From a virus, in the IMG/VR virus record IMGVR_UViG_3300044712_002679, positions 52,406-116,405 of that record: a stretch of 64,000 bases of DNA; one strand, written 5' to 3'. Each line of letters starts with the position of its first letter. Position 1 is the stretch's first letter. This document shows, piece by piece, positions 11,330 to 62,399 of this stretch. The position numbers and the translations under genes were made by a program. The notes under the pieces are model-generated. The model searched no databases. It was given only the letters and a program-made list of their open reading frames with translations, and was not told the origin of the DNA.

Positions 11330-12640
11330 ATGACTCAAATCACTAAATTGAATAAATCAAATGAAAATATAATTGATTTATTACAAAACAAAGAATTACT
11401 CATATATGAAGATATACAAGGTGCGCAAATTTTTGTGAAATGGACTGGTCAAAAATTTATAATTAAACCTAAATCAATCAGCAATACAGAATTAAATTTT
11501 GTTGATTTAGCAACACAAAAATTTTATAATACGGTTTTTAATCATTGTTACACTCTACCTGAATATGTGACAAATTTATTATCACCAACTTGGTGGTTTT
11601 GTTTTGAATATTTTCCAGATAATCAACCTGCACATATTGAATATAAAAAAATTCCAAAAAATAATTTAATATTAACATGTATTGTTAAAGGAACTAAATA
11701 TAAATACAATTATGATGAAATAGTTGAATATGCTAAATTATTAGATGTTGATTCACTACCTGTAATATTTAAAGGAAAATTAAATGATAAACAATTAGAA
11801 GTTATAAATTTATTTTTACATACATCTGAAAATGATTTAGATTATGTTTTTGGTGAAAATAATTTTGCATATTTTTTTTATAAAATATTAAACCCAAATT
11901 TACAAAATTCGTTTTTGATGGATGATTTTAATGATAATTTAGAAAAAATTATAATTCGAATTGATGGAAATGATGAACAATCATTTGAAATATTCAATCC
12001 CAATTATGAAAAAATGAATTTGAGTAATAAAACTGAATATTTAGATACATATACATTAATATTGTTAAATTTTTTAGAATTCTTACAGCTTATTGATTTT
12101 GATAAAGTTAAATTGAAAGAAATCACAAAGGATGAACTATATATTGAATTTATTTCGATAGTTTTTAATGAATTTGCTGATAATATAAAAAAGGAAATAA
12201 AAACTTGGAACTTATCTATACCTGGATTTTTTTCTGATGATAAATTTAAAATTAATACATTTTTATTAAAAAATCAAAAAACAATAGATATAATTAAATC
12301 TGATGATAAATTTGAATATTTTTTTAAACTTATCTTAGGATCATTCAATAAAACAAAAAAGAAACCTATCGGTATTTTTGATGAAAAAACTGTTGAATTG
12401 TTTAATAAAGAAGTTAAAAAAATATCTAATTATTTAGAATCAGTATTAAAAATAAATCGTGAATATTTATTAAGAAATAATGACTTACTAAATTTTAAAG
12501 ATTATTTTAATGTCAATTATAACACAGATAGCCAAGGTGATATATATCCTGATGTGGATAAACTAATGTCAGAAATACCAGATGGTGAAGAAAAGAAAAA
12601 GAAATCATCTATGCCCCCAACAAAAAAACCTACTAAGTAG
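11330..12640 (+). CDS. hypothetical protein (ends in tandem TAG-TAG)
   Basis: 436-aa ORF; the stop is tag tag. Confidence 0.5.
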   Translation: MTQITKLNKSNENIIDLLQNKELLIYEDIQGAQIFVKWTGQKFIIKPKSISNTELNFVDLATQKFYNTVFNHCYTLPEYVTNLLSPTWWFCFEYFPDNQPAHIEYKKIPKNNLILTCIVKGTKYKYNYDEIVEYAKLLDVDSLPVIFKGKLNDKQLEVINLFLHTSENDLDYVFGENNFAYFFYKILNPNLQNSFLMDDFNDNLEKIIIRIDGNDEQSFEIFNPNYEKMNLSNKTEYLDTYTLILLNFLEFLQLIDFDKVKLKEITKDELYIEFISIVFNEFADNIKKEIKTWNLSIPGFFSDDKFKINTFLLKNQKTIDIIKSDDKFEYFFKLILGSFNKTKKKPIGIFDEKTVELFNKEVKKISNYLESVLKINREYLLRNNDLLNFKDYFNVNYNTDSQGDIYPDVDKLMSEIPDGEEKKKKSSMPPTKKPTK

Positions 12641-13466
12641 TAGGTTTTTTTATTATATTATTTTGATAACTTCTAATACAGGATCGACAACTTGGGATAA
12701 AAACACCATAAAACCGTGTATTAATTTCTTTAAACACTTCCCTAAATCCACTTTCTAAATAATTTTCAACATTTTCATATTTCCAACACCCAAATCCACA
12801 TTTATAAATATCACCTTCTTCATCAATTAAAAAAGAATATTTTTTATCCGGATTACTACAATATGTTCCAAACATTGAATAACGTCCATACGTAAACATA
12901 GACCTACCAATAGGAATCATATCTTCTTCTTTTTCTTTTAAAGTCGATTCAAATGTTTTAATATTATATTTTGTTAAATATTCTTTCGCTTTTTCATTAT
13001 TTATATTGTGATGAAAACTATCTTTAGATATTGATACATAAATATTATCAAATTGTGATAAAAATTTTGCAAAATCATCATCAATTGCAGCCCAATCACC
13101 GTTTGATACTATTCTAACAACTTGGGCTACTGGAATTATATTTAATAGAATATCTTTGTAGTTTGGATTACAAAATATTTCACCACCCATAACATTTAAT
13201 GAATATACTCCATTATTTTTAATGAATTTACTAATTTTTAATGATGTTTCAATAGACATATGGATATCATTGTTTGGTGAACATTCATAACAACAATGAC
13301 TACAAGATTGGGTGCATTTTAATGTTATTCTAATAGTAGCTGATAAACGTTTAGGACATTCTTTAAAAACATTACATGTTGAACAATTACATTTATGTTC
13401 AGTTTTATTACATACTTTATCTAAACAGATATCACAAGCTGGAAATTTATCAAAAAAATCTTTCAT
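12633..13466 (-). CDS. radical SAM enzyme (Cys-rich N-extension, possible auxiliary cluster)
   Basis: CTQSCSHC fits CX3CX2C within ...TLKCTQSCSHCCYEC. Extra Cys motifs occur N-terminally (CDICLDKVC, CNCSTC) and C-terminally (CGFGC). The stop is also a tandem TAG-TAG. Confidence 0.65.
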   Translation of the reverse strand: MKDFFDKFPACDICLDKVCNKTEHKCNCSTCNVFKECPKRLSATIRITLKCTQSCSHCCYECSPNNDIHMSIETSLKISKFIKNNGVYSLNVMGGEIFCNPNYKDILLNIIPVAQVVRIVSNGDWAAIDDDFAKFLSQFDNIYVSISKDSFHHNINNEKAKEYLTKYNIKTFESTLKEKEEDMIPIGRSMFTYGRYSMFGTYCSNPDKKYSFLIDEEGDIYKCGFGCWKYENVENYLESGFREVFKEINTRFYGVFIPSCRSCIRSYQNNIIKKPTT

Positions 13467-30472: not shown

Positions 30473-32209
30473 ATGATCATAAAATCCATTACACTTAAAA
30501 ATTTCAAATCATTTGGAAATAATAAACAAACCTTAACATTTAATACGGTTACAGGTGATTTAATACTTATTTCTGGAAAAAACGGTAATGGTAAATCTTC
30601 CCTACAACAATCAATTGACTTTTCATTATATGGTATTGTTCGGGGAAAAAATGGCAAACGTGTACCACAATCAATATTACCAAATAGAATTAATAAAAAT
30701 TTAGAAACTGAAATATTATTTGATAATAATTTGTCAAATGAAATATTGATTCAAAGAAACTTAGAACCAAATTCAGCTAAAATTTTAATAGATAATATAG
30801 ATGAAACAAAGAAAATTAAAAAAGATGATCTTTTAAACATATTAGGGTTTGATTTTGATACATATAAAAGTATTATTTCTATGTCGGTATCAGATTTTGC
30901 AAATTTTATTGATCTTACACCAGAAGAAAAACGAAATATCATCAATAAACTATTTAATCTTCAAGATTTAGATAATTATTTGACTTTATGTAATGGGAAA
31001 ATTAAACAATTTACCGAAGAAAAAACAAAAAATATTGCAATTATTGAAACTAATAAGCAAACAATCCAAACATTAAATCAAAATATTATTACCATTAAAA
31101 GAAGTGGAATTGAAGATAGTGAAAAAGAAATCGAAAAACTTAAAATTGAAAAAGAATCTAAAAGAATACCTGGATCAAAATTAAAAACAGAAATTGAATC
31201 ATTAACACCCAAATTAATTGATTTAGAAAAACGACGACAAGATTTAGAAAATCAAAGGAATATAATAATTAATGAACTTTTTGAATTAAAAGTAGAATTA
31301 AAAAATCTTGATGATAAAATAATAGTATATAAATCGGGAATATGTCCAGTTTGTGATAGCGATCTTAATGATACTAATCATCAACATAATTTAAATGATA
31401 TAATATCAAAACAACACAATTTACAAACAAAATGCCAAAATTTAGAAATAAATAAAAACAACACTATATTAAAATTAACACAGATTTCAAATGAAAAAGA
31501 ATCATTATCAAGACAAAAAAACAATTTGACAATTCAATATAATAATATCGTTAATGAATTTAAAACTATCACAAAGAAAATTGATGAATTATCAATAAAT
31601 AATAAACATAATATATCTATTGAAGAACTTTCAAAAAATATAACTGAACTTAAACAAAAAAATATCGAATACACTAATAAAGTTGATGAATTAAATACCA
31701 ATATTAAGATATATGATGAATTAAAAGATATATTTTCAATTAAAGGTGTAAGAAAAAATATAATAAAAAATATTGTTAAACCAATAAATGTATATCTTCA
31801 GGATATTTTAAATGAATTAAAATCACCATACAATATTAAAATTGATGAAGAATTCAATGTAAATATATTTGAAAGATTGACATTTGAAGTTCATCCCGAA
31901 AGTTTATCTACAGGTGAAGGAAAAAAAATAAATATCGCAATAGCACTATCATATTTGAAGTTAATTTTGAAATTCCGAAAATTAAATATACTTTTTTTAG
32001 ATGAAGTATTTTCTTCAATGGATCCTGATAATGTAGAATATGCTTTAAAGGTGCTTAAAGATTTTACTAAGGAATATAATCTAAATATCATTATATTAGA
32101 CCCCAACGTATATTTAAATGATAATTCTATTGGACTAGATTATTTTGATAGAATTATTAAAATACGGAAAAAAATGACATTTTCAGTTATTGAAGAAGAA
32201 AAAAAATAG
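30473..32209 (+). CDS. Rad50/SbcC-like ABC ATPase with coiled coil and CxxC zinc hook
   Basis: N-terminal FKSF...ISGKNGNGKSSLQQSIDFSLYG (Walker A). Long coiled coil with central CPVCDS hook. Signature LSTGEGKK and Walker B ILFLDEVFSSMD/D-loop at the C-terminus. 578 aa, similar in size to T4 gp46. Confidence 0.8.
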   Translation: MIIKSITLKNFKSFGNNKQTLTFNTVTGDLILISGKNGNGKSSLQQSIDFSLYGIVRGKNGKRVPQSILPNRINKNLETEILFDNNLSNEILIQRNLEPNSAKILIDNIDETKKIKKDDLLNILGFDFDTYKSIISMSVSDFANFIDLTPEEKRNIINKLFNLQDLDNYLTLCNGKIKQFTEEKTKNIAIIETNKQTIQTLNQNIITIKRSGIEDSEKEIEKLKIEKESKRIPGSKLKTEIESLTPKLIDLEKRRQDLENQRNIIINELFELKVELKNLDDKIIVYKSGICPVCDSDLNDTNHQHNLNDIISKQHNLQTKCQNLEINKNNTILKLTQISNEKESLSRQKNNLTIQYNNIVNEFKTITKKIDELSINNKHNISIEELSKNITELKQKNIEYTNKVDELNTNIKIYDELKDIFSIKGVRKNIIKNIVKPINVYLQDILNELKSPYNIKIDEEFNVNIFERLTFEVHPESLSTGEGKKINIAIALSYLKLILKFRKLNILFLDEVFSSMDPDNVEYALKVLKDFTKEYNLNIIILDPNVYLNDNSIGLDYFDRIIKIRKKMTFSVIEEEKK

Positions 32210-32218
32210 GATAATTAA

Positions 32219-34061: not shown

Positions 34062-34813
34062 ATGAACAATAAAAAATTATTTACAACAGAAGATGAAATT
34101 AATCTCATAAAAAAATATTATTATATTGATAATTTAAGTTCCATTGATATTTCAAAAATATTAAAATGTAGTCATAATACAATAGTTAGGGTATTAATTC
34201 GAAATGGATGTATATTAAGACCAAAATCTAAACACACAAATTTAAAATATTCTATAAATGAAAATTATTTTAAGATTATTGATACACAAAAAAAAGCATA
34301 TTTTCTAGGCTTGTTATATTCTGATGGAACATTATGTTTAAAAGATAAATTGGTTGCCATATCATTATCAGAAAAAGATGGATATATAATAGATGAATTT
34401 ATTAAAGATATTAAATTTACTGGTATTTTAAGAATAGTAAAATCGAAAAATATTAAACATTCAATAAATCATTAATTTTAAAATTTCCAACGATGGATAT
34501 TTTACCAAAGCATTTGATATCACATTTTATTAGGGGATATTTTGATGGTGATGGTTGTGCTTTTAATGATTTAAAAAGAAATAAAAAAAGAATATGTTTT
34601 GTTGGTACATATGAATTTTTATCAATTGTTAAATATATTTTAATTGAAAATTTAAAAATTAATGATACTAAAATTTCACCAAAAAGTAAAAATAATACAT
34701 TTGATTATCGTATAAATAAACAATCCGATGTTAAAAAAGTTACTGATTTTTTATATAATGAATCAATAATTCATTTAAATCGAAAATATGATAAATTAAA
34801 AATAATTTTATAG
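34062..34813 (+). pseudogene. LAGLIDADG homing endonuclease, split by a frameshift into two ORFs
   Basis: ORF 34062..34475 carries an N-terminal HTH and the first LAGLIDADG motif YFLGLLYSDGTL. ORF 34493..34813 carries the second motif IRGYFDGDGCAF in a different frame. Confidence 0.7.
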
Positions 34814-35056
34814 TTTTGGTAAATTAAAAGCCCGATTTTGATTTAATTGTGTTTCAATATCCATTTCCAAGTCATATACTTCCATGACCCTTTGCATATC
34901 ACCAGGATTGTTATATTTTTCTAAACATTCATCACTATCCATACAATAGACTGGATAATCATCATAGTCATATGTATCACAAACCACAATAAGGTATTTT
35001 GCATCCTTATTCTTAGCTTCATTAAGCCACTGTCTAATGTCATTCTGTGTAGTCAT
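34808..35056 (-). CDS. hypothetical acidic small protein
   Basis: 82-aa ORF. Confidence 0.4.
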   Translation of the reverse strand: MTTQNDIRQWLNEAKNKDAKYLIVVCDTYDYDDYPVYCMDSDECLEKYNNPGDMQRVMEVYDLEMDIETQLNQNRAFNLPKL

Positions 35057-36936: not shown

Positions 36937-36961
36937 TCGTTTGAAATTTTATTTAACTTTT

Positions 36962-37606
36962 CTAATTTTCTTTTTCTTTCATACCGAATACTATCCGTAT
37001 CCAACAATCCACTTGATTTATAAGAAAACAAATTAATATCCAAAGATACATTATATTCTGATATAAATTCTGGCCATTGTTTAGATAATTCATCATTTTT
37101 TTTTTTATATTTATATAATAATCATTTTTACAATCAATTTTTTTAATTATATCAAATTCCACTTTTGTTCCTGTAAATATACATTTACAATTATGATAAT
37201 ATATATAATTCATCAATATTTCAAACTTACTTGATATTTTTTCATAGAATAGTTCATCATATATAATTAATTCGGGTTTTAAATACATTAAATCATTGCA
37301 ATATGAATCACCAATTGAATGAAATTTCAATGCATTATTATTTATAAATTTTATCGTATTTTTTGTGATACCAATTATTATATTGGATTGCGAAAAAAAT
37401 TTTAACATTTCTGTTTGATTATGTTCACAATTCTTTTGATAATTTCCGAAAAATATAATGTCATGGTCGTTATTATATTTTACGTAATTTTCTATGTAAG
37501 CATACAAAACACCACTTTTTCCTGTGTGTCTTGCCCATAATAAAAATGATTTATCGTGATAAATTAATTTTCTAAGTGTATCATTTTGATAATTTTTCAG
37601 TTTCAT
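36962..37606 (-). CDS. terminase large subunit-like ATPase domain only (no nuclease domain)
   Basis: Deviant Arg-containing Walker A WARHTGKS, as in T4 gp17 SRQLGKT. Walker B LIIYDE, as in gp17 MIYIDE. C-motif IFTGT, as in gp17 IITTT. The HSIGDSYCNDL block is collinear with TerL coupling-motif region. Ends with TAG; an A11 homopolymer lies in the C-terminal codons (37096-37106). Confidence 0.5.
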   Translation of the reverse strand: MKLKNYQNDTLRKLIYHDKSFLLWARHTGKSGVLYAYIENYVKYNNDHDIIFFGNYQKNCEHNQTEMLKFFSQSNIIIGITKNTIKFINNNALKFHSIGDSYCNDLMYLKPELIIYDELFYEKISSKFEILMNYIYYHNCKCIFTGTKVEFDIIKKIDCKNDYYINIKKKMMNYLNNGQNLYQNIMYLWILICFLINQVDCWIRIVFGMKEKEN

Positions 37607-41424: not shown

Positions 41425-42177
41425 ATGTCAATGACAATTGATCAATTAGTGGATATAGTACAAGGTGATTTAACAATTTCTGGGTTGTTTGATAAAATTT
41501 TACCCGATATTGAAATTATTCGTTTAGTTAGAGAAGAAGCATTAGAATGGTTCTACAAAAATTATCAATTTTCTAAAATTAAAATATTTTATTTTTTAGA
41601 AAAAAATTTTATGACAACAGAACAATATCATAGGAACCAATATTTAATACTTCCCCCAGAAGTTGAAGACATTGTAAGAATCGTAAAAATTGATAACCCC
41701 ACACTCTTTCGTCTTGGTATACAAGCCCCCCATTTATCCATAAATCTAGGTGTTACAAATCAACCATTTTTGACATCATTTGTTACAACTGCTGGTGAAC
41801 TTGGTGTTTATCGTTCGGTTATTAGTAATTTTGCAGATCAAATAAATAAAATGACCCATAATACAATACGATTTAATTATAATCATATTAGTAAAAGATT
41901 ACAATTATTGACATCAATTGATACGGATTTGATGTTAGAAGTTTATAGTAGAATTGAAGAAGAAGAAATGTTCGATAATGTCTATTTTAAACAATATGTT
42001 ATTGGAATGTGTCAAATGAGAATGGGTCAGGCTGTTGGTAGATTCAATTTTAATATGCCAGGAAATTTTCAATATAATGCTGCTGATATGATTACCCAAG
42101 GTGAAAAAAAGATGACTGATGTTATCGAAAAAATTAAAGCTGAAACTAACGTGTGTTGGTTTATTATGGATAGATAG
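41425..42177 (+). CDS. hypothetical protein (paralog of 41146..41397; ends TAG, in frame with next ORF)
   Basis: 250 aa; the stop is TAG at 42175-42177. Confidence 0.5.
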   Translation: MSMTIDQLVDIVQGDLTISGLFDKILPDIEIIRLVREEALEWFYKNYQFSKIKIFYFLEKNFMTTEQYHRNQYLILPPEVEDIVRIVKIDNPTLFRLGIQAPHLSINLGVTNQPFLTSFVTTAGELGVYRSVISNFADQINKMTHNTIRFNYNHISKRLQLLTSIDTDLMLEVYSRIEEEEMFDNVYFKQYVIGMCQMRMGQAVGRFNFNMPGNFQYNAADMITQGEKKMTDVIEKIKAETNVCWFIMDR

Positions 42178-42180
42178 ATA

Positions 42181-42516
42181 ATGAAGTATTTGAAAACATT
42201 TGAAGAAACTATAATATGTGGTATCACATACAAATATGATGTGGGTGATTATGTATTGCTCAATAAAGAAGAAATGGATAAAAATACAATAGAAGATCAT
42301 GTGTCACCACACGATTTAGTTGAATTTAAAGTAAAAATAATAGAAATAAGAACTAAAGATGAATATGGAAAACAATATCCATACCCATACATAATTGAAA
42401 CTTTTGATAATAAAAAATGTGCAATTAAAGATACAGAAATACTTCGAAAATTAACAGTCAATGAAATTGAAGAATATAAAATCAAAAAATTATCAAAAAA
42501 ATATAATATTTTATAA
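42181..42516 (+). CDS. small-protein paralog family member (MKYLKTFEE N-terminus, C-terminal KKYNIL)
   Basis: 111 aa; shares both ends with 30127..30441; a terminator follows. Confidence 0.55.
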   Translation: MKYLKTFEETIICGITYKYDVGDYVLLNKEEMDKNTIEDHVSPHDLVEFKVKIIEIRTKDEYGKQYPYPYIIETFDNKKCAIKDTEILRKLTVNEIEEYKIKKLSKKYNIL

Positions 42517-42553: not shown

Positions 42554-44047
42554 TTAATCATCGTTTTTCGATATAAAATGTGCCATATTTATTCTACCTT
42601 CAGTTGATGCAATCTTTGTAATTTCATAATTATCATCATTATGTTCAAATAAATCTAAAAAAGATTTAACATCGGGTTCAACCGATTCAATTTCACATTC
42701 GGATTCTATTTCTTCATCAAAAAAAGATTTACTTTCAATTGGATTTGGTGTTATATTATTAGAACTAGATTTAATTAAAATTGCTTCTGAATTTTCTATA
42801 TTTTTTGAAATATCCCAAAAATCTTTTACTACATCATCTTTTTCTTCTTCTAAAATATCCCAATAACCATGAACAGTAAACTCTGTCGTTGTTGTCGTTG
42901 TTACAGGTTCTAATGGTGCTACTGTCGTTGTTGGTGCTACTGTTGTTGTAGGTGCTACTGTTGTTGTAGGTGCTACTGTTGTTGTAGGTGCTACTGTTGT
43001 TGTGGGTGCTACTGTCGTTGTAGGTGCTACTGTTGTTGTGGGTGCTACTGTCGTTGTAGGTGCTACTGTCGTTGTAGGTGCTACTGTCGTTGTAGGTGCT
43101 ACTGTCGTTGTAGGTGCTACTGTCGTTGTAGGTGCTACTGTATAATCATCATCATCCTTTTTTTTGCCAATTTTAAGCTTTTTTAAGTCATCTTTTTCTT
43201 TTGGTATATCTTGCGTATTATCTAACGTTAATTGATTAATTCCGATTAATAATGCTATTGCTAATGGGTCAAAAACACATATAATAAGTAATGCAATAAT
43301 ATTAACAATTCTATTAATGGGTGCGCCTGTTATATCAGCAATAAATTTATATGGACCAATTTCAGATGAAATATCATTAGATTTTAATTCAATTATTTTT
43401 AAATCATAATATGCTATCGAATCATTAACAGCATTTGTTTGTTTCATCAAATCTGTTATTTCTTTATTCATCTGACTTATTTGTTGATCTGCACCATTAA
43501 TTTGGGTTTCAGTTCTTTTAGCACTACTTACATTATTTTTGTCATATAAATTATCTAATCGTTGTTCTTGTTGTGTTCTTAATCCTGATAATGTGTTCAT
43601 TCGTGTATTTGAACTTTCAATTGATTTATTTATTCTATCCAATTGATTAACAAATAAATTCTTTTTGTTTTCTACTATCACAATTTGTGAATCCCTAGAT
43701 TCCAATTTTGTGGCAGTTTGTTGATATGCACCAGTTAAAAATCCATAAATACCTACTGATGTCAATAACATAATAAATACTACTGCAAACACATAAAAGC
43801 CTCTTAATCCTTTTTTTATTGTATTCCAAAACCTATATACATACGAAACAGTAACCAATTTAGCAAATTCTAATGATGCTGCAAGTATAGTAATACCTAT
43901 ACCAGCCGCAGCAAAAAGTTTTGTTAAACCAAAAACTGAAAAATATGCAGCAGTACCAGCTAATGATAATGCAGCCATGGATAATAACAATATAAATACC
44001 CAATTTTTCTTCATTTCCTTTAATTTATTTTTATTTATAAAAACCAA
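42554..44047 (-). CDS. membrane protein with (VAPTTT)x13 tandem repeat and acidic C-terminal domain
   Basis: Four N-terminal TM helices, a coiled coil, another TM helix, then 13 perfect TVAPTT repeats encoded by 18-nt repeats at 42895-43140, then an Asp/Glu-rich tail. Confidence 0.6.
   Translation of the reverse strand: MVFINKNKLKEMKKNWVFILLLSMAALSLAGTAAYFSVFGLTKLFAAAGIGITILAASLEFAKLVTVSYVYRFWNTIKKGLRGFYVFAVVFIMLLTSVGIYGFLTGAYQQTATKLESRDSQIVIVENKKNLFVNQLDRINKSIESSNTRMNTLSGLRTQQEQRLDNLYDKNNVSSAKRTETQINGADQQISQMNKEITDLMKQTNAVNDSIAYYDLKIIELKSNDISSEIGPYKFIADITGAPINRIVNIIALLIICVFDPLAIALLIGINQLTLDNTQDIPKEKDDLKKLKIGKKKDDDDYTVAPTTTVAPTTTVAPTTTVAPTTTVAPTTTVAPTTTVAPTTTVAPTTTVAPTTTVAPTTTVAPTTTVAPTTTVAPLEPVTTTTTTEFTVHGYWDILEEEKDDVVKDFWDISKNIENSEAILIKSSSNNITPNPIESKSFFDEEIESECEIESVEPDVKSFLDLFEHNDDNYEITKIASTEGRINMAHFISKNDD
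42895..43140. repeat. 18-bp tandem repeat (ggtgctactgtYgttgta)x~13 inside a CDS
   Basis: Direct reading. Confidence 0.8.
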
Positions 44048-48057: not shown

Positions 48058-48364
48058 TTTTTAAATCAATTTTAATTGCTAATTCTTTTGAACTTCCTAT
48101 TTTTTTATATAAATCATCAGGATGATATCCTGGTTTCCATTCAACACCCCCAGAAATATGAAATTTTTCGCATAATAAATGATGATCGGGACAAACAGTT
48201 ATACCATTTTCGATTATATATCCACCATTTGGCATTTCATTTCTATCTGTAATGTGATGTGCATCAAGATCATGTTTTATATCACAAAAAACACATTTGT
48301 GATGATCTCGTTCGAAAACTTTATTTCTAAAATTTTCCCTTATTTGTTTTTTACTTATTCCCAT
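48047..48364 (-). CDS. HNH endonuclease
   Basis: HHKCVFCD...DAHHITDRNEMPNGGYIIENGITVCPDHH: an HNH motif with paired Cys/His. Confidence 0.8.
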   Translation of the reverse strand: MGISKKQIRENFRNKVFERDHHKCVFCDIKHDLDAHHITDRNEMPNGGYIIENGITVCPDHHLLCEKFHISGGVEWKPGYHPDDLYKKIGSSKELAIKIDLKNGK

Positions 48365-48660
48365 TTATGAATATCATATTTTTCCATTATTACAAGAACT
48401 GAAACCCATCCATTATTTGCCAACGATATAGATGATGTTTTTACAATATATCCTTCTGATGTTTTTTTATCAATAAAATAATTAACTTGATTCATTTCAT
48501 TAGTCCGAATTGTTTTGCAATATGTTACAGTCGATAATGGTTTATCTGGCTGAATATGCATCAAATTTGATTCTCTAATTGGATTTGATTTTGTTGGTTC
48601 TGAATTTGCTACACAAATCGCTAACAAAATACTTACAAAAAATACTAATATTACTTTCAT
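48355..48660 (-). CDS. small secreted protein (start moved to MKVILVFF)
   Basis: The listed ORF's first 25 codons are antisense to the tRNA gene. The internal Met begins a typical signal peptide MKVILVFFVSILLAICVANSEP. Confidence 0.45.
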   Translation of the reverse strand: MKVILVFFVSILLAICVANSEPTKSNPIRESNLMHIQPDKPLSTVTYCKTIRTNEMNQVNYFIDKKTSEGYIVKTSSISLANNGWVSVLVIMEKYDIHKWE

Positions 48661-48678
48661 TTTTTTAATTAATGTTAG

Positions 48679-48749
48679 TATCCTAGTCGGGAATCGAACC
48701 CGAGATAAAGGTTTTAGAGACCTCCGCTTTACCACTTAGCTACTAGAAC
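48679..48749 (-). tRNA. tRNA with anticodon CUA (amber-suppressor type, tRNA-Sup)
   Basis: Hand-folded cloverleaf. Acceptor GTTCTAG/CTAGGAT (7 bp, two G-U). D arm GCTA-AGTGGTA-AAGC. Anticodon stem GAGGT/ACCTT with loop C-T-CTA-A-A (U33, A37). 4-nt variable loop. T arm TCGGG-TTCGATT-CCCGA. Discriminator A; no encoded CCA. Confidence 0.7.
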
Positions 48750-48861
48750 GAATAAAAAACAACCAATAATCTGACTTTCTTGAATTACTCACCAGATAGT
48801 ACCCCTTAGCTTTGTAGTATCAGTTGTTCATAATAGTGGATACAAATATACTTATTAATTA

Positions 48862-49281
48862 TTAATTTACCAAACTTTTATAGAAATTACCTTTTTCTTT
48901 TTTGTATTCCATTAAAAGTTTTTCAGATTCAGCTTGTGCTTTTAACCAAGCTTTTCTTGTATTTTGAATTGCTTCTTCTTTAGCTGAAACTTTAATACGT
49001 ATTCTACCAATACAAAAATTTTGGGTTAAAATACCAAAGAATGTATTAATTCTTCTTAATGTTGGTTTGTTACTAATCCAAAAACAATATTTTTGGATTT
49101 TTTTCATTTGATTCTTTGATATGTTTTTATCAAATTTATCAATATTCCGGATTTTACCCGACACTTGAAATTTGTTATTTTTAACTACGTTTTCAATTAT
49201 ATCAATTGTATTATTGATCACGTTCTTTAATTCACTCTTGTTGTATGTGTAATTTACACCATTTTCTACTATTGCTTCCAT
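48862..49281 (-). CDS. hypothetical protein
   Basis: 139-aa ORF. Confidence 0.4.
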   Translation of the reverse strand: MEAIVENGVNYTYNKSELKNVINNTIDIIENVVKNNKFQVSGKIRNIDKFDKNISKNQMKKIQKYCFWISNKPTLRRINTFFGILTQNFCIGRIRIKVSAKEEAIQNTRKAWLKAQAESEKLLMEYKKEKGNFYKSLVN

Positions 49282-49394
49282 AATTTTATTTATTTATTTT
49301 TTTTATTTATAATATTTGTTGTTTTATGATATTCCAATTATGGAAACTATTAAGGTGGTTTAATCTAGAACATAACTTCCTCCTTTCTTTTTTT

Positions 49395-49643
49395 TTATAA
49401 TTCAGTTTCAATTATTTTATAAAATTTATATTTTTCTAACCAACCCCAACCCAATTCTTCATGACCCCAATTTATCCAATAAGAATTTGAATAATTTGAA
49501 TTGTTTTGTAATTTATAAACCATATCTAAATGATGCATATATTTTTTCGCATCATCAAAATTATCAAAAATCTTATCATAATTATTGTTGTGTTCATAAT
49601 CATAAAATCGGATTTTTATTACATATTTTTCTTTACTAGACAT
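49395..49643 (-). CDS. hypothetical small protein
   Basis: 82 aa; overlaps the PTH2 stop. Confidence 0.4.
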   Translation of the reverse strand: MSSKEKYVIKIRFYDYEHNNNYDKIFDNFDDAKKYMHHLDMVYKLQNNSNYSNSYWINWGHEELGWGWLEKYKFYKIIETEL

Positions 49644-50025
49644 AGCAATTTTCCTTTCTTACATAAGAATTTTTATCAATTTTATCAATAGATTTATATT
49701 CCTTTAACATTAAAGGATATGATGATAATAATCGTCTAGATTGATCAGATGGTTCAATAGCAATAGCTGTTATTTGATCATCGAGATCAGGTTCTCTGAA
49801 GATAGAATACTTAATATTGTTTTTTTGTAATTTTTCGATGAGATTTTTGAGATCATCTTCATCTGCACACGATAATTGTGCTAAATATGGTTCTTTTATC
49901 CATAATTTTGCAATTTCTGGATGTTCAAAGACAAATTGAATAGCAGCATGGGATGCCATTACAGCTTGATATCCTGCGGTTGTATCACGTCTTGATACTG
50001 TTGATAATTTGTAAATCTAAGTCAT
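49636..50025 (-). CDS. pth2: peptidyl-tRNA hydrolase PTH2 family; in-frame TAG at codon 3 (50017-50019)
   Basis: ...RRDTTAGYQAVMASHAAIQ aligns with the PTH2 ...R.D.KMGKGKIAAQCSHAA core. W, an acidic DEDDL block, and TAIAIEP (PTH2 TVLGIGP) follow at the right spacing. The N-terminal strand IYKLSTVSRRD is only encoded upstream of the listed Met and downstream of ATG-ACT-TAG, which has a good SD (AAAGGA, 6-nt spacer). Confidence 0.6.
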
Positions 50026-50195
50026 AATATTTTTCCTTTTTACTTATATATAAAATTTTTTAATTTGTTTTTGTAAATGTATGTATATTTTTTAAATATA
50101 CAAATTATTATTCATATTATTTATATTTTTAACATAATAACATAATTTGACTTTTTATTTTATATATAAAAATTTTACTTTTTGTTTTATTTTTC

Positions 50196-50561
50196 TTATA
50201 ATATTTCACCCAAAACAGCACCATCCTTTTTCCGAATCAATAGTGGAACGTTGCTACCACTTAATTCAATATTAACATTTCCTTTTTTTATTTCGGATAT
50301 GATTTGATTGTTGGTATATCTTTGATTACCTGCTTCATCATTACTGATATGAATAGTCAAGATCATCTTTGGTTTATTTCTAAGGTCTTTACGATTAGGA
50401 TTGTACATATGCTTAGTGACATCATCTAGCCAACCATTTTCTTTTGCTTTACGATACGCTGTGGCATCACGAACACTAAATTCTGTTCGAGTTACATATT
50501 TTTTTGCGATTATTTCACAAGCATCTTTAGTCCAAGTAAATCCTGTTCTTCTTTCCTTCAT
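50196..50561 (-). CDS. hypothetical protein
   Basis: 121-aa ORF at the distal end of the 50-60 kb operon. Confidence 0.4.
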   Translation of the reverse strand: MKERRTGFTWTKDACEIIAKKYVTRTEFSVRDATAYRKAKENGWLDDVTKHMYNPNRKDLRNKPKMILTIHISNDEAGNQRYTNNQIISEIKKGNVNIELSGSNVPLLIRKKDGAVLGEIL

Positions 50562-50605
50562 AATATAATTTTTTATACAAATATATAATATTTTTTTATT
50601 AAATC

Positions 50606-51004
50606 TTACTGAACACTTAAAGTCAACTCAATATCTTCTGTTTCAAAATAAAGATTTTGTAATCTGTGGACATATTTCGGTTGGACTTTTATTTGTTTTC
50701 CGTTTATCCACCAACCATGATTTGTATTATAGACAAATTGTCCTTTAGTATAAACCCTAAATTCATTTTGATTTCCCTGAATAGTTTCACACGAAAAGCC
50801 AAATTTAGGGAGCCAATCTTCTGTCAACAATATTGGTTCTATACAATCTTCTGTTAGTGTACATTCACCTAGCGCATACCAATCAGATTCATTCCATTGG
50901 AAATTGTCATCAAAGTTTGAAATAACACCATCATTATTTCTATAAGACCAAATTGATACATTGTGATGTACCCAATTACCTATTTTTAATTGTTTTACAT
51001 TCAT
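50606..51004 (-). CDS. hypothetical protein (operon partner of the ATP-grasp gene)
   Basis: 132-aa ORF, 27 nt downstream of 51032..52177. Confidence 0.4.
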   Translation of the reverse strand: MNVKQLKIGNWVHHNVSIWSYRNNDGVISNFDDNFQWNESDWYALGECTLTEDCIEPILLTEDWLPKFGFSCETIQGNQNEFRVYTKGQFVYNTNHGWWINGKQIKVQPKYVHRLQNLYFETEDIELTLSVQ

Positions 51005-51031: not shown

Positions 51032-52177
51032 TTAATTTATTTGTTTTAAATTTAAATCATTAACATCATTTGTAATAATATGTGGCATAAAATAAGACAT
51101 ATTATTAGTAATTTTACAATCTGTTTCACGAATACCAATTCCACAAGATTCCCCACCAATCACCCAAGAACCAATAATAGGATATTTTCCATCTTGTGGT
51201 TCAATTTCGACAAGTTCCTGGTAAATGAATCCTTCTTCACCATATTCACCACAAGTTTCACAATCCAACACACCATTTTTATATAATGATACATTGGCAC
51301 CTTCACGGGAATATATTGGTTTTTTACAATAATTACCCGATATCAGTGGATTTGTGTCCGCATTTAGAATATATGGTGAAGTAGGAAACAATTTTGATAA
51401 TACTACAAGCATATACTTATTACTCATAATAGCTTTCCACAACGGTTCAATGAAAGTCGTTTCACAATTTGGTATAGATTTACCAAATTCTTCATTAAAC
51501 ATCCATTCATATGGATATAATTTGAATAAAAAGTCAATATGTTGATCAGATTTATTATAAAACAAATCATCTTGACAATCAATATCTTCAATATCAAATA
51601 TTGATGTATTTAATCCCGCTTCAGCAGCAGTTGATAAAATATATGATGTTGTTGTATAATCTTCTAAATTATCACAAATACAACAAAAATCTACACGTTC
51701 ACTTTCATAATCTTTTTGAATATCAATCCAACTTTGTATCAATGCTTCGTGAAGACTATTAAATTGATCATTTTTGGGAAATAAATCTTCTTTCCATTCC
51801 CATTGAACTACACTTGCTTCAAATAATGATGTTGGTGTATCTGCATTAAATTCAAGTAATTTAATTTTACCATTTACAAAAGCAAAATCAAACCTACCAT
51901 ATAAACTTAATTCATCGTTTTCCCAACTATCAATCAATGTCGGAACAATATATCTTGGGATATGTAATTCATCCCAAAGATCGTTCTTTATGACATATTC
52001 AACAGCATCAATATACATTTGATAACATGCATTTGTTGCCGTTTCGATTTCAGTTATTTGTTTTTTAGAAAATTCATAATATGCATTTTCCAACCAATAA
52101 TTAGCATCAAAATAAAAACCTAAATCTTGAATTTTTTCTTTGTAATTAATTCTTGGTGCAATTGTAATTCTTTTCAT
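51032..52177 (-). CDS. glutathionylspermidine synthase-like (GspS/YgiC/YjfC family) ATP-grasp amidoligase
   Basis: Family hallmark RFDFAFVNGKIKLLEFNADTPTSLFEASVVQWEW (the E(Y/F)NADTP block) plus overall ~380-aa length. Confidence 0.7.
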   Translation of the reverse strand: MKRITIAPRINYKEKIQDLGFYFDANYWLENAYYEFSKKQITEIETATNACYQMYIDAVEYVIKNDLWDELHIPRYIVPTLIDSWENDELSLYGRFDFAFVNGKIKLLEFNADTPTSLFEASVVQWEWKEDLFPKNDQFNSLHEALIQSWIDIQKDYESERVDFCCICDNLEDYTTTSYILSTAAEAGLNTSIFDIEDIDCQDDLFYNKSDQHIDFLFKLYPYEWMFNEEFGKSIPNCETTFIEPLWKAIMSNKYMLVVLSKLFPTSPYILNADTNPLISGNYCKKPIYSREGANVSLYKNGVLDCETCGEYGEEGFIYQELVEIEPQDGKYPIIGSWVIGGESCGIGIRETDCKITNNMSYFMPHIITNDVNDLNLKQIN

Positions 52178-52204: not shown

Positions 52205-52585
52205 TTAAGAAGCAGACGATGATGAATGTCCACTAGTTCCAAAACCTTTTGATGATTTTGCACCTGTGCTAGATTTTGCACCATTTGCACCACTTCTAGT
52301 AAACTTAGATGTTCTAGGGATTGATGATGGGCGACTTACTACAGCACCACTAGGACTTCTATATTCACCACTCGATGGATAATAACACACTGTTGTGCGT
52401 TGACCATTCATCATTGAATAAATCATCCAATAACCCATAGCACTATTCCATGTGCTAGTATTACCACGATTATCAATGTAGGTTTGACCATCAGTTGGGG
52501 ATTCAGGATATTCGTTCTTTTTTTCACAAGATGACAATAAACTTAATGCTAATATTGCCAAAAAAATTGGATTTGATTTTTTCAT
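52205..52585 (-). CDS. lipoprotein (Ser/Gly-rich)
   Basis: MKKSNPIFLAILALSLLSSC lipobox followed by a low-complexity S/G/T-rich mature region. Confidence 0.55.
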   Translation of the reverse strand: MKKSNPIFLAILALSLLSSCEKKNEYPESPTDGQTYIDNRGNTSTWNSAMGYWMIYSMMNGQRTTVCYYPSSGEYRSPSGAVVSRPSSIPRTSKFTRSGANGAKSSTGAKSSKGFGTSGHSSSSAS

Positions 52586-61874: not shown

Positions 61875-62399
61875 TCAAATAGTAATATATTTCACAGGCA
61901 CATTATCAGTTAACCAAACATTATTTTCACTTAAATAAAATTTTATTCCATCAGCATACATTGCAGCAGAATCAATTTTCAATATGATTGGGGAATTACG
62001 TTTTGAATAACGCTTTCCAACTGAATATGCAACATCTTCTTTGTCTGTTAAATGGACATGAAGTCGATTCATTTTAGATAGTCCCGTTTTTTGAATAATC
62101 TTATAACTTTCAGGTGATGTTCCATGATAAAGTATTTTTGGTGGTCTAGCTGATTTAAGTTCAACATCAACCTTAATTGAATGACCTTGTGATGCCCTTA
62201 TCTTTGTTTTATCTTCATTATAAGCCAATCTTTTCTTGTCATTAGTATCAACAATGTGATCTAATTCTTTTTGTGTTATTTTAACTTTACTTAAAAGTGA
62301 ATTAACATCAACATATCCGTGTTTATCCATCATTAAATCTTCTGGATTGTGTCGCAATAAATACGATATGTGCTTCCCGATTTGTATATAATCTTTCAT
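61875..62399 (-). CDS. kptA: RNA 2'-phosphotransferase Tpt1/KptA
   Basis: ISYLLRHNPE...GYVDV..LL...RASQGHS...ILYHGT...GL...LHVHL is collinear with the Tpt1/KptA family over 174 aa. Confidence 0.85.
   Translation of the reverse strand: MKDYIQIGKHISYLLRHNPEDLMMDKHGYVDVNSLLSKVKITQKELDHIVDTNDKKRLAYNEDKTKIRASQGHSIKVDVELKSARPPKILYHGTSPESYKIIQKTGLSKMNRLHVHLTDKEDVAYSVGKRYSKRNSPIILKIDSAAMYADGIKFYLSENNVWLTDNVPVKYITI

Follow-up and report, generated by a model that had tools for sequence, protein, structure and literature searches.

Early in-frame stop codons beside a cognate suppressor tRNA in huge phages: candidate translational gates on a PTH2-like gene and a leader peptide

In Streptomyces, the bldA tRNA-Leu(UAA) controls genes that contain TTA codons, and release factor 2 is autoregulated through an early in-frame UGA in its gene, prfB. 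The bar minigenes of phage lambda are free-standing, and only hosts deficient in Pth suffer from their toxicity. Suppressor tRNAs that time the translation of genes with in-frame stops have been proposed for recoded gut phages as a 'code change module' (Borges et al., 10.1101/2021.08.26.457843); that preprint reports only TAG and TGA reassignments, and its text contains neither 'peptidyl' nor 'hydrolase'. Arrest peptides of the RAPP type that regulate downstream genes are established for ApdA/ApdP (PMC7897499, PMC10951233, PMC12992588), and the peptidyl-tRNA hydrolase PTH2 has been noted in jumbo phages without an early stop (PMC7824862). Our literature search found no paper that combines PTH2, a suppressor tRNA and a phage. 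Here we analyze a 64,000-nucleotide stretch of viral DNA (hereafter the window; positions 52,406 to 116,405 of IMG/VR record IMGVR_UViG_3300044712_002679), which is the part seen of a 501-kb genome (501,337-bp contig). On its minus strand lie a PTH2-like gene, a leader mini-open reading frame (ORF) and the gene of a suppressor tRNA with anticodon CUA, and both reading frames carry an amber codon (TAG) at codon 3. We consider that these early stops probably act as translational gates that depend on the phage suppressor tRNA.

On the minus strand, the PTH2-like gene begins with ATG (50025-50023), ACT and TAG (50019-50017) and continues as ATT TAC AAA TTA TCA ACA GTA TCA AGA CGT GAT ACA ACC GCA GGA TAT CAA GCT GTA ATG GCA TCC CAT GCT GCT, as the initial annotation had read it; GTAAAAAGGAAAAATATT directly precedes the ATG. 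The upstream codons do share their frame with the listed ORF 49636..49959 (107 aa), whose start is Met23 of the readthrough product, the first ATG, GTG or TTG to follow the TAG being that of Met23. The source annotation called only this 107-aa fragment, as a hypothetical protein, and relatives have been translated as MTQIYKL… under code 15 by other pipelines. The expected product of about 129 aa comes to 129 residues, or to 130 because the gene ends with TAG (49638-49636) followed by TAA (49635-49633). The AAAGGA said to serve the start is present at 50039-50034, but its spacer is 8 nt rather than 6, and the argument that this is the only start served by a Shine–Dalgarno (SD) sequence carries little weight, with SD-like motifs upstream of just 1 of the 73 genes in the window, below the background rate of 3.5%. 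The triplet pattern by itself is within chance, with 33 ATG-NNN-TAG matches in the window where 30.7 are expected and 3 of ATGNNNTAGATT where 2.0 are expected. It becomes meaningful because of the PTH2 homology of the codons that follow the TAG and because of comparative conservation. As a candidate genome-wide start signal, ATGNNNTAG(ATT) was rejected, since its frequency is at chance level in the window and in 150 kb of LR756501. The Logan assembly of SRR26046407, possibly from the same sample, is identical across the locus.

Homology places the true N terminus upstream of Met23. Against Pfam PTH2 (PF01981), the product scores 25.4 bits with the N-terminal segment and 21.7 bits in the Met23 form, the cutoff being 23, and the segment after the TAG restores the first strand, as had been anticipated; many homologs bear a precomputed PF01981 assignment. 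A 36-member family profile matched PTH2 structures in the PDB (24bt, 2zv3, 1rzw, 1q7s/Bit1 and 1wn2) over the whole domain, with a best E-value of 7e-9, and aligned KLxVVTRRDL, the residues right after the TAG, with the first β-strand (β1) of solved PTH2 structures. The AlphaFold2 model has a mean predicted local distance difference test (pLDDT) score of 87.9, and its top 14 Foldseek matches in the PDB all belong to the PTH2 family, with template modeling (TM) scores of about 0.7. In this model, β1 and the first half of helix α1 precede Met23, which lies within α1, and the Met23 product would therefore be a broken domain. The residues H26, E78, D80 and T86 are invariant in the family. Thus, the PTH2 identity claimed at the outset stands for the fold and the Pfam score but not for the catalytic motif, which reads REPDxxNQ instead of the canonical RDAGxTQ. 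We use the name PTH2-like because of this replacement, and peptidyl-tRNA hydrolase activity is putative.

The early stop recurs in related huge phages. A scan of IMG/VR gave 80 further loci, mostly on contigs of up to 480 kb and with 23–55% GC, for a total of 84 loci. LR756500, LR756501/03 and LR756504, unannotated huge phages that rank nearest among the matches listed, all start ATG-NNN-TAG-ATT; 15 Lak (Prevotella) phage records also occur among the tblastn matches, at ranks below those listed. An ATG stands one to four codons before an in-frame head stop in 81 of the 84 loci, which answers the check for the stop in homologous phages suggested at the outset. In the 67 non-redundant genes of the TAG type, the stop occupies codon 3 (n = 44), codon 4 (n = 16), codon 5 (n = 5) or codon 2 (n = 2); 18 different codons occur before it, and a purine follows it in every gene (A in 55, G in 12; expected 0.658 per site). 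All 67 heads carry TAG and none carries CAA or CAG, yet the bodies of the same genes (7,728 codons) contain 449 CAA/CAG and 5 TAG. The distance from the stop to β1 varies by 0–10 residues, which means that the stop keeps its position relative to the start codon and not relative to the fold. No ATG, GTG or TTG occurs within 30 codons past the stop in 32 of the 67 genes, in line with the earlier claim that the TAG must be passed. As a control, we counted long ORFs with an ATG one to four codons before the upstream bounding stop: such an arrangement was found for 101 of 277 TAG (36%), 38 of 648 TAA (5.9%) and 12 of 270 TGA (4.4%) stops, a TAG excess with a Fisher p-value of 2e-35 that ignores phylogeny. 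Searches of viral and metagenome collections with a degenerate pattern returned no TGA-type heads and only one TAA lineage. Uninterrupted starts are found in outgroups without the suppressor, namely a high-GC clade (MATIKMGD…) and mycobacteriophage Myrna, whose gp84 sits inside a Ser/Leu tRNA array. These comparisons support the view that the early TAG is a selected, position-specific feature and not a product of genome-wide recoding. The gate is not confined to the PTH2-like gene, since the head recurs in the leader peptide and in a few further gene families.

The only tRNA detected by ARAGORN in the 64 kb has the anticodon CUA (48749-48678) and lies 1.27 kb downstream of the PTH2-like gene on the same strand, as first noted. 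It matches the Rfam tRNA model with 64.5 bits over positions 1-71 of 71, and the Rfam scan found the tRNA only, with no adjoining theta or hepatitis delta virus (HDV)-like ribozyme. The ARAGORN label tRNA-Pyl was rejected, given the D-loop GG and the TTCGA T-loop; a true tRNA-Pyl has neither a D-loop GG nor a T-psi-C sequence, has a 3-nt variable loop and is accompanied by pylS and pylBCD. The label reflects the CUA anticodon only, and no Pyl-related Pfam family was among 25 of the 27 families matched by the 73 ORFs of the window. Of the 81 early-stop loci, 66 have a suppressor tRNA within 3 kb; in every case it is encoded on the strand of the gene and is cognate to the stop, and at about 20 loci 25-200 nt separate its end from the ATG downstream of it. 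In LR756501, two CUA tRNAs are located 2.4 kb from the PTH2-like gene, at a distance of about 300 kb from the main tRNA array with its 16 members. At the syntenic position of the window's tRNA, relatives have CUA tRNAs; in a phage of an ochre lineage, a UUA tRNA occupies it and the gene head reads ATG ACG TAA GTA…. This lineage is represented by two contigs from different samples, with the gene intact in one. The ochre phage has 25% GC, and its own genes end mostly with TAA (13 of 18); therefore, its suppressor does not represent a code change and would have to act weakly or in special contexts. The covariation of codon and anticodon indirectly supports activity of the tRNA in readthrough and favors the adjacent tRNA as the decoder that the initial annotation had proposed.

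Several observations concern the tRNA genes of other loci. UUA tRNAs were located at L115:3922-3996 (minus strand), L114:2573-2647 (minus strand) and L073:4809-4883. In high-GC loci (L084-L105; for example, L056:4741-4899 and L097:3984-4132), the tRNAs encoded downstream of the PTH2-like gene share the loop core UUUCAA, and ARAGORN labels them 'Glu|SeC'. Some of them seem to have 8- or 6-membered anticodon loops, and it is to this group that the CUA tRNAs show their highest, though weak, similarity. Furthermore, phage transfer-messenger RNA (tmRNA) genes occur about 2 kb upstream of the PTH2-like gene (L042:624-976 and L054:811-1162), which fits a theme of ribosome rescue.

On sequence grounds, the genome is that of a huge phage of about 0.5 Mb with the standard genetic code. 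ORFs cover 0.908 of the window under the standard code and 0.911 with TAG as a sense codon; among ORFs of at least 90 aa, 67 end with TAA, 13 with TGA and 8 with TAG, and there is one clear in-frame TAG among about 73 window genes. Across all loci, the stops that join two long open stretches comprise 25 TAG, 50 TAA and 36 TGA. The 150-kb sample of LR756501 is likewise standard-code-like, and in-frame TAG codons in a substantial share of genes, as expected for code 15, were found neither in the window, nor in the neighborhoods of the gene, nor in that sample.

A second in-frame TAG, at 42175 between the ORFs 41425..42177 and 42181..42516, was considered and is most likely a true stop, as the match to phrog_211 runs to profile position 964 of 976. 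The gene that ends there encodes a head-tail-adaptor-like protein; the next gene follows in the same frame after one codon, and a suppressor would yield a fusion protein. Behind window genes that end with TAG, a further stop, TAA or another TAG, usually follows within 0-2 codons (12638-12643, 32207-32218, 34811-34822, 36953-36964, 42175-42183 and 49633-49638). Additionally, at 42900-43180, two non-coding frames show in-frame TAGs at intervals of 18 bases, which points to an 18-bp tandem repeat within the 497-aa gene 42554..44047.

A second candidate gated element (49386-49274) follows about 270 nt downstream of the stop of the PTH2-like gene. There, AAAGGAGG AAGTT precedes an 8-codon ORF, ATG TTC TAG ATT AAA CCA CCT TAA (49386-49350 in all), which lies 68 nt upstream of a gene for a 139-aa protein and is conserved in the clade of the window. 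Its SD sequence is conserved across this clade as AAGAAAGGAG(G), which is unusual in a genome otherwise without SD sequences. In relatives, the same leader stands before the homologous gene and encodes peptides of the form M-x-amber-x-K/R-P-P-TAA. The proline codons vary at the third position (CCA CCT, CCA CCA, CCG CCG, CCG CCC, CCA CCG) while the Pro-Pro-stop ending is kept, and the leader is probably translated. In the ochre phage, the leader reads ATG ACG TAA … AAA CCA CCG TAG; the early stop is TAA and the terminal stop is TAG, both swapped, which amounts to a second covariation with the anticodon. The terminal stop of the leader is always one that the suppressor does not match. Pro-Pro-stop endings were found in 29 of 705 mini-ORFs with an early TAG, compared with 1 of 590 with an early TGA and 2 of 1,170 with an early TAA, one of the latter being the ochre leader; this is an enrichment of about 25-fold (p = 2e-13). 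Endings in RAPP occur in four loci (L049, L057, L076 and L050) and in KAPP in two (L053 and L055). In the minimum free energy (MFE) fold of the region, a 12-bp helix pairs 49347-49336 with 49285-49274 (-16.35 kcal/mol, z = -2.4), and the SD region additionally pairs with the CCACCU of the proline codons. Four other clades keep the complementarity with unrelated sequences. The gene after the leader belongs to the 139-aa family in 13 of 26 loci; in at least 9, it comes instead from a family of about 123 aa that is unrelated to the first. Because it precedes at least two unrelated families, the leader looks like a portable cassette. The 139-aa protein had no match in Pfam, PHROGs, PDB sequences or a Foldseek search of the PDB.

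Termination by release factors is inefficient when the nascent chain is very short, and suppression of UAG is favored by a purine behind it. In the mechanism that we propose, translation of the PTH2-like gene would start at ATG 50025 and meet the UAG at codon 3, and the enzyme would be made only if the phage tRNA(CUA) decodes it; otherwise, the head would give Met-Thr only. The early position of the stop and the purine behind it could allow a weak suppressor to pass the gates while ordinary gene ends are left undisturbed, which the ochre lineage fits. At the leader, the ribosome would leave at codon 3 without the suppressor, whereas with it four more codons would be translated before a pause at Pro-Pro-stop. 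The paused ribosome would cover 49347-49336 and thereby free the AUG of the 139-aa gene from its pairing within 49285-49274. The geometry agrees if about 12-15 nt of mRNA are protected downstream: a ribosome at the terminal stop then covers the 5' arm, and one released at the early TAG falls short of it. Each of the two outputs would thus require expression, processing and charging of the suppressor tRNA. The sequences themselves show the anatomy of the locus, the PTH2 fold, the conservation and position of the early stop, its linkage to the tRNA and covariation with the anticodon, the Pro-Pro-stop enrichment and the predicted helix; what we infer is that readthrough, stalling and start unmasking take place, together with the inserted amino acid, the activity of the enzyme and the purpose of the gate. 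For the purpose, our guess is either timing or the capacity to recycle peptidyl-tRNA during suppression and drop-off from short ORFs. The initial annotation had pictured a feed-forward circuit in which the hydrolase clears aberrant peptidyl-tRNAs that arise from readthrough; this is possible as speculation, and it is as plausible that the enzyme recycles tRNAs from the short peptidyl-tRNAs shed by the heads and leaders.

Several points weigh against this interpretation. The whole analysis is computational, and the loci are phylogenetically related, so that fewer independent events underlie the counts given above than their size suggests; the TAA/UUA pairing counts as one. No suppressor tRNA was present within the 3 kb fetched at 15 of the 81 early-stop loci, and two loci (L089 and L094) have CUA tRNAs and yet no early stop. 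The acceptor stem of the CUA tRNA is weak (G1·U72, U3·G70). The amino-acid identity of the tRNA could not be read from its sequence, the likeness to Glu(UUC)-like tRNAs of the high-GC clade being barely above background. The eight TAG-ending ORFs of the window would be exposed to an efficient suppressor, and suppression must therefore be partial or context-dependent. In the enzyme, the canonical R-D-A-G-x-T-Q and the Lys upstream of it were not found, the aligned residues being R-E-P-D-I-x-N-Q. At the leader, the peptide of the window ends with I-K-P-P, which lacks a RAPP-type core (RAPP, RGPP or RAGP); even a RAPP core alone is insufficient for arrest, the N-terminal region being needed too (PMC12992588), and arrest by a leader peptide of only 7-14 aa is our proposal. 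The consensus helix of 11 bp is kept in 7 of 7 clade members with changes only to G·U, and no pair is altered on both sides. Compared with control start regions, 11 of 26 leaders fall in the top 0-8% for a masking helix, and the other 15 show nothing.

The early TAG might instead be a neutral, inherited sense codon for Gln or Glu in a code-15 phage, with no regulatory role. Related Lak and huge-phage lineages have been described as TAG-recoded (10.1101/2021.08.26.457843), many database entries give the head as MTQIYKL under code 15, and the PTH2-like gene of LR756501 has a second, mid-gene TAG that aligns to Glu. We regard this explanation as unlikely in view of the contrast between heads and bodies in their use of TAG and CAA/CAG, the absence of an in-frame TAG excess in neighboring genes or in 150 kb of LR756501, and the persistence of the stop while the surrounding codons and the distance to the ATG vary. 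Moreover, a TAA stop with a UUA tRNA in a phage that ends 13 of 18 genes with TAA cannot be a code change. Very unlikely, in our view, is an account without readthrough, in which ATG-ACT-TAG is a two-codon mini-ORF like lambda bar and translation reinitiates at the ATT or at Met23. AUU can act as a weak bacterial start codon, as in infC, and two-codon minigenes interact with peptidyl-tRNA hydrolase in Escherichia coli; the codon after the stop is ATT in 40 of the 67 genes and ATA, ATC or ATG in 6 more. In the remaining 21, however, it is no near-cognate start (GTA, GTT, AAC, AGC, ACA, ACT, AAA, AGA or GGC), the 32 genes described above offer no canonical start within 30 codons, and a start at Met23 would drop β1 and half of α1. 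Reinitiation also gives no role to the linkage with a cognate tRNA or to the TAA/UUA switch, and the conserved Pro-Pro codons of the leader would stay untranslated. To a pseudogene, or a TAG produced by a sequencing or assembly error, we give almost no credence, although the source annotation has only the hypothetical fragment: the same head is present in 81 of 84 loci from many samples, a second assembly is identical, and the rest of the ORF is intact and conserved. The comparative data effectively refute this reading.

For the leader alone, a further alternative is that it is not translated as a sensor and is either a pure RNA element, in which the SD/CCACC hairpin and the masking helix are opened by another factor, or a decayed copy of the PTH2-like head. 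This is fairly unlikely. The MFE fold does pair the SD region with CCACCU, 15 of 26 leaders have no masking helix, and heads of the PTH2-like gene have demonstrably been copied by homing-endonuclease insertions. An element acting as RNA only would nevertheless leave several features without explanation, including the synonymous third-position variation with Pro-Pro-stop kept, the enrichment of this ending of about 25-fold only after an early TAG, the terminal stop that is never matched by the suppressor and is swapped in the ochre phage, and the strong SD that stands out in a genome without SD sequences.

A broader version of the gating model is possible but on the doubtful side. In it, the suppressor tRNA would be a dedicated regulatory RNA of a self-contained switch that leaves the code unchanged, with a portable gate (a start, 1-3 codons and a cognate stop) placed on the PTH2-like gene, on endonuclease ORFs that copied its head and on Pro-Pro-stop leaders that unmask at least two unrelated families. 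In the clade of the window, the gene that the leader would control is directly upstream of the tRNA gene. Translation of the 139-aa gene could protect transcription into the tRNA gene, and the positive feedback could make the switch all-or-none. If gating is true, the ochre version in a genome whose genes end with TAA would show that the early position limits a weak suppressor to the gates.

Other ORFs with early stops were observed in the neighborhoods of the PTH2-like gene. Homing-endonuclease-like ORFs (NUMOD3, DUF723, DUF4379) lie just upstream of it in seven loci, at approximately L010:1763-2905, L012:1968-2978, L030:2166-2969, L043:1930-2691, L060:2240-2986, L062:1984-3000 and L064:1709-2452. 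Each opens with a copy of the first 20-25 codons of the PTH2-like gene, including ATG-x-TAG and ending after 'GYQAVQ', and it seems that the gated start was captured by the mobile element. An early TAG head is also found on a protein of about 193 aa that has the motifs HDCGKPY…HFPNH (L061:2968-3906; L021:2396-2977, L052:2396-2974 and L059:2394-2990); in L061, it is fused to the C terminus of the PTH2-like domain, which suggests a functional link between the two. Neither this family nor the other early-TAG families, of 146 aa and 85 aa, had a Pfam match. Furthermore, the early-TAG ORFs MKxIKITIRGPTYLF* (L002:3337-3384) and MKKxINIRGPDEMF… (L072:4378-4875) share I-R-G-P, which resembles the RAGP core of SecM, and may represent a further class of gated arrest peptide.

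The coordinates of the locus are given in Table 1. A listed ORF at 48355-48735 on the minus strand is an artifact, in which a GTG start extends a 101-aa signal-peptide protein (ATG 48660) across the tRNA gene. A scan of 48500-50700 gave promoter-like matches at chance level and no terminator. The PTH2-like gene is preceded by an AT-rich spacer with a 9-bp inverted repeat free of mismatches, TGTATATTT-AAA-AAATATACA (50082-50102, minus strand), which could be an operator or a hairpin. The window also encodes a Tpt1/KptA RNA 2'-phosphotransferase, an RlaP RNA-repair nucleotidyltransferase and a glutathionylspermidine synthase (listed coordinates 61875-62399 and 51032-52177, both on the minus strand; the position of the RlaP ORF in the window was not located), and a KptA-like ORF is also present near the module in the ochre phage.

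Table 1. Positions of the PTH2-like gene, the leader and neighboring elements in the window.
Feature	Coordinates	Strand	Remarks
PTH2-like gene	49636..50025	-	From ATG 50025 through the codon-3 TAG; 129 aa if read through; end TAG 49638-49636, backup TAA 49635-49633
Early in-frame amber at codon 3, then ATT	50017..50019	-	Conserved at codons 2-5 in 81/84 loci
SD-like AAAGGA, 8 nt upstream of ATG; significance doubtful	50034..50039	-	
82-aa ORF overlapping the 3' end of the PTH2-like gene	49395..49643	-	No Pfam match
Leader SD AAAGGAGG, strong, 5 nt upstream of the leader ATG	49379..49386	-	
Leader mini-ORF ATG TTC TAG ATT AAA CCA CCT TAA; M-F-(amber)-I-K-P-P-stop	49350..49373	-	
5' arm GTTTCCATAATT of the predicted start-masking helix, from 3 nt past the leader stop	49336..49347	-	
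3' arm AATTATGGAAGC of the predicted helix, containing AUG 49281-49279 of the downstream gene	49274..49285	-	
Gene of the 139-aa protein, proposed target of the leader; conserved, helical	48862..49281	-	
Suppressor tRNA, anticodon CUA	48678..48749	-	ARAGORN, Rfam

Phage suppressor tRNAs are now read as signs of a code change, whereas here they are kept in standard-code genomes with very few apparent targets, each of which has a cognate stop at codons 2-5. This suggests that translation is gated gene by gene and that the leader brings a new input, suppressor tRNA activity, to attenuation. It would explain why pipelines truncate the PTH2-like gene or call code 15, and it carries the warning that a suppressor tRNA alone should not prompt re-annotation under an alternative code. 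The gates could also serve as natural parts, dependent on position and context, for engineered amber or ochre control, with testable constructs of 60-130 nt. Moreover, very short ORFs are known to cause peptidyl-tRNA drop-off, and the arrangement ties a PTH2-like enzyme to them.

Compared with described systems, the locus shares single elements with each of them. In recoded Lak and crAss-like phages (code 15), in-frame stops are scattered through many late, structural and lysis genes, whereas here the code is standard, the stop is confined to codons 2-5 of one small enzyme gene and of leaders beside the tRNA, and an ochre version exists. As with bldA, one dedicated tRNA would limit a few genes that contain its rare cognate codon; the bldA codon is a rare sense codon at variable positions, whereas here a stop right after the start competes with release factor. 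The prfB gene likewise has an early in-frame stop whose output is set by termination versus alternative decoding, and both products hydrolyze peptidyl-tRNA, here putatively; prfB uses a +1 frameshift that senses its own product, in contrast to the in-frame suppressor readthrough proposed here. The ermC-type, SecM and ApdA/ApdP leaders resemble the present one in the short upstream ORF, the proline-rich stall site at the C terminus and the proposed opening, by a paused ribosome, of a helix that covers the start. The difference is that the input here would be the suppressor tRNA, acting through the early stop, and that the peptides of 7-14 residues end directly at the stop, with IKPP in the window. 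The lambda bar minigenes have the same AUG-codon-stop form, and such ORFs release peptidyl-tRNA that needs a hydrolase; in the present case, the hydrolase-like gene itself begins with the mini-ORF, which would be meant for readthrough. Finally, the PTH2 of jumbo phages and Myrna gp84 belong to the same family and also occur among phage tRNA genes, but their starts are uninterrupted, and the pairing of an early cognate stop with a suppressor is specific to the huge-phage lineage studied here.

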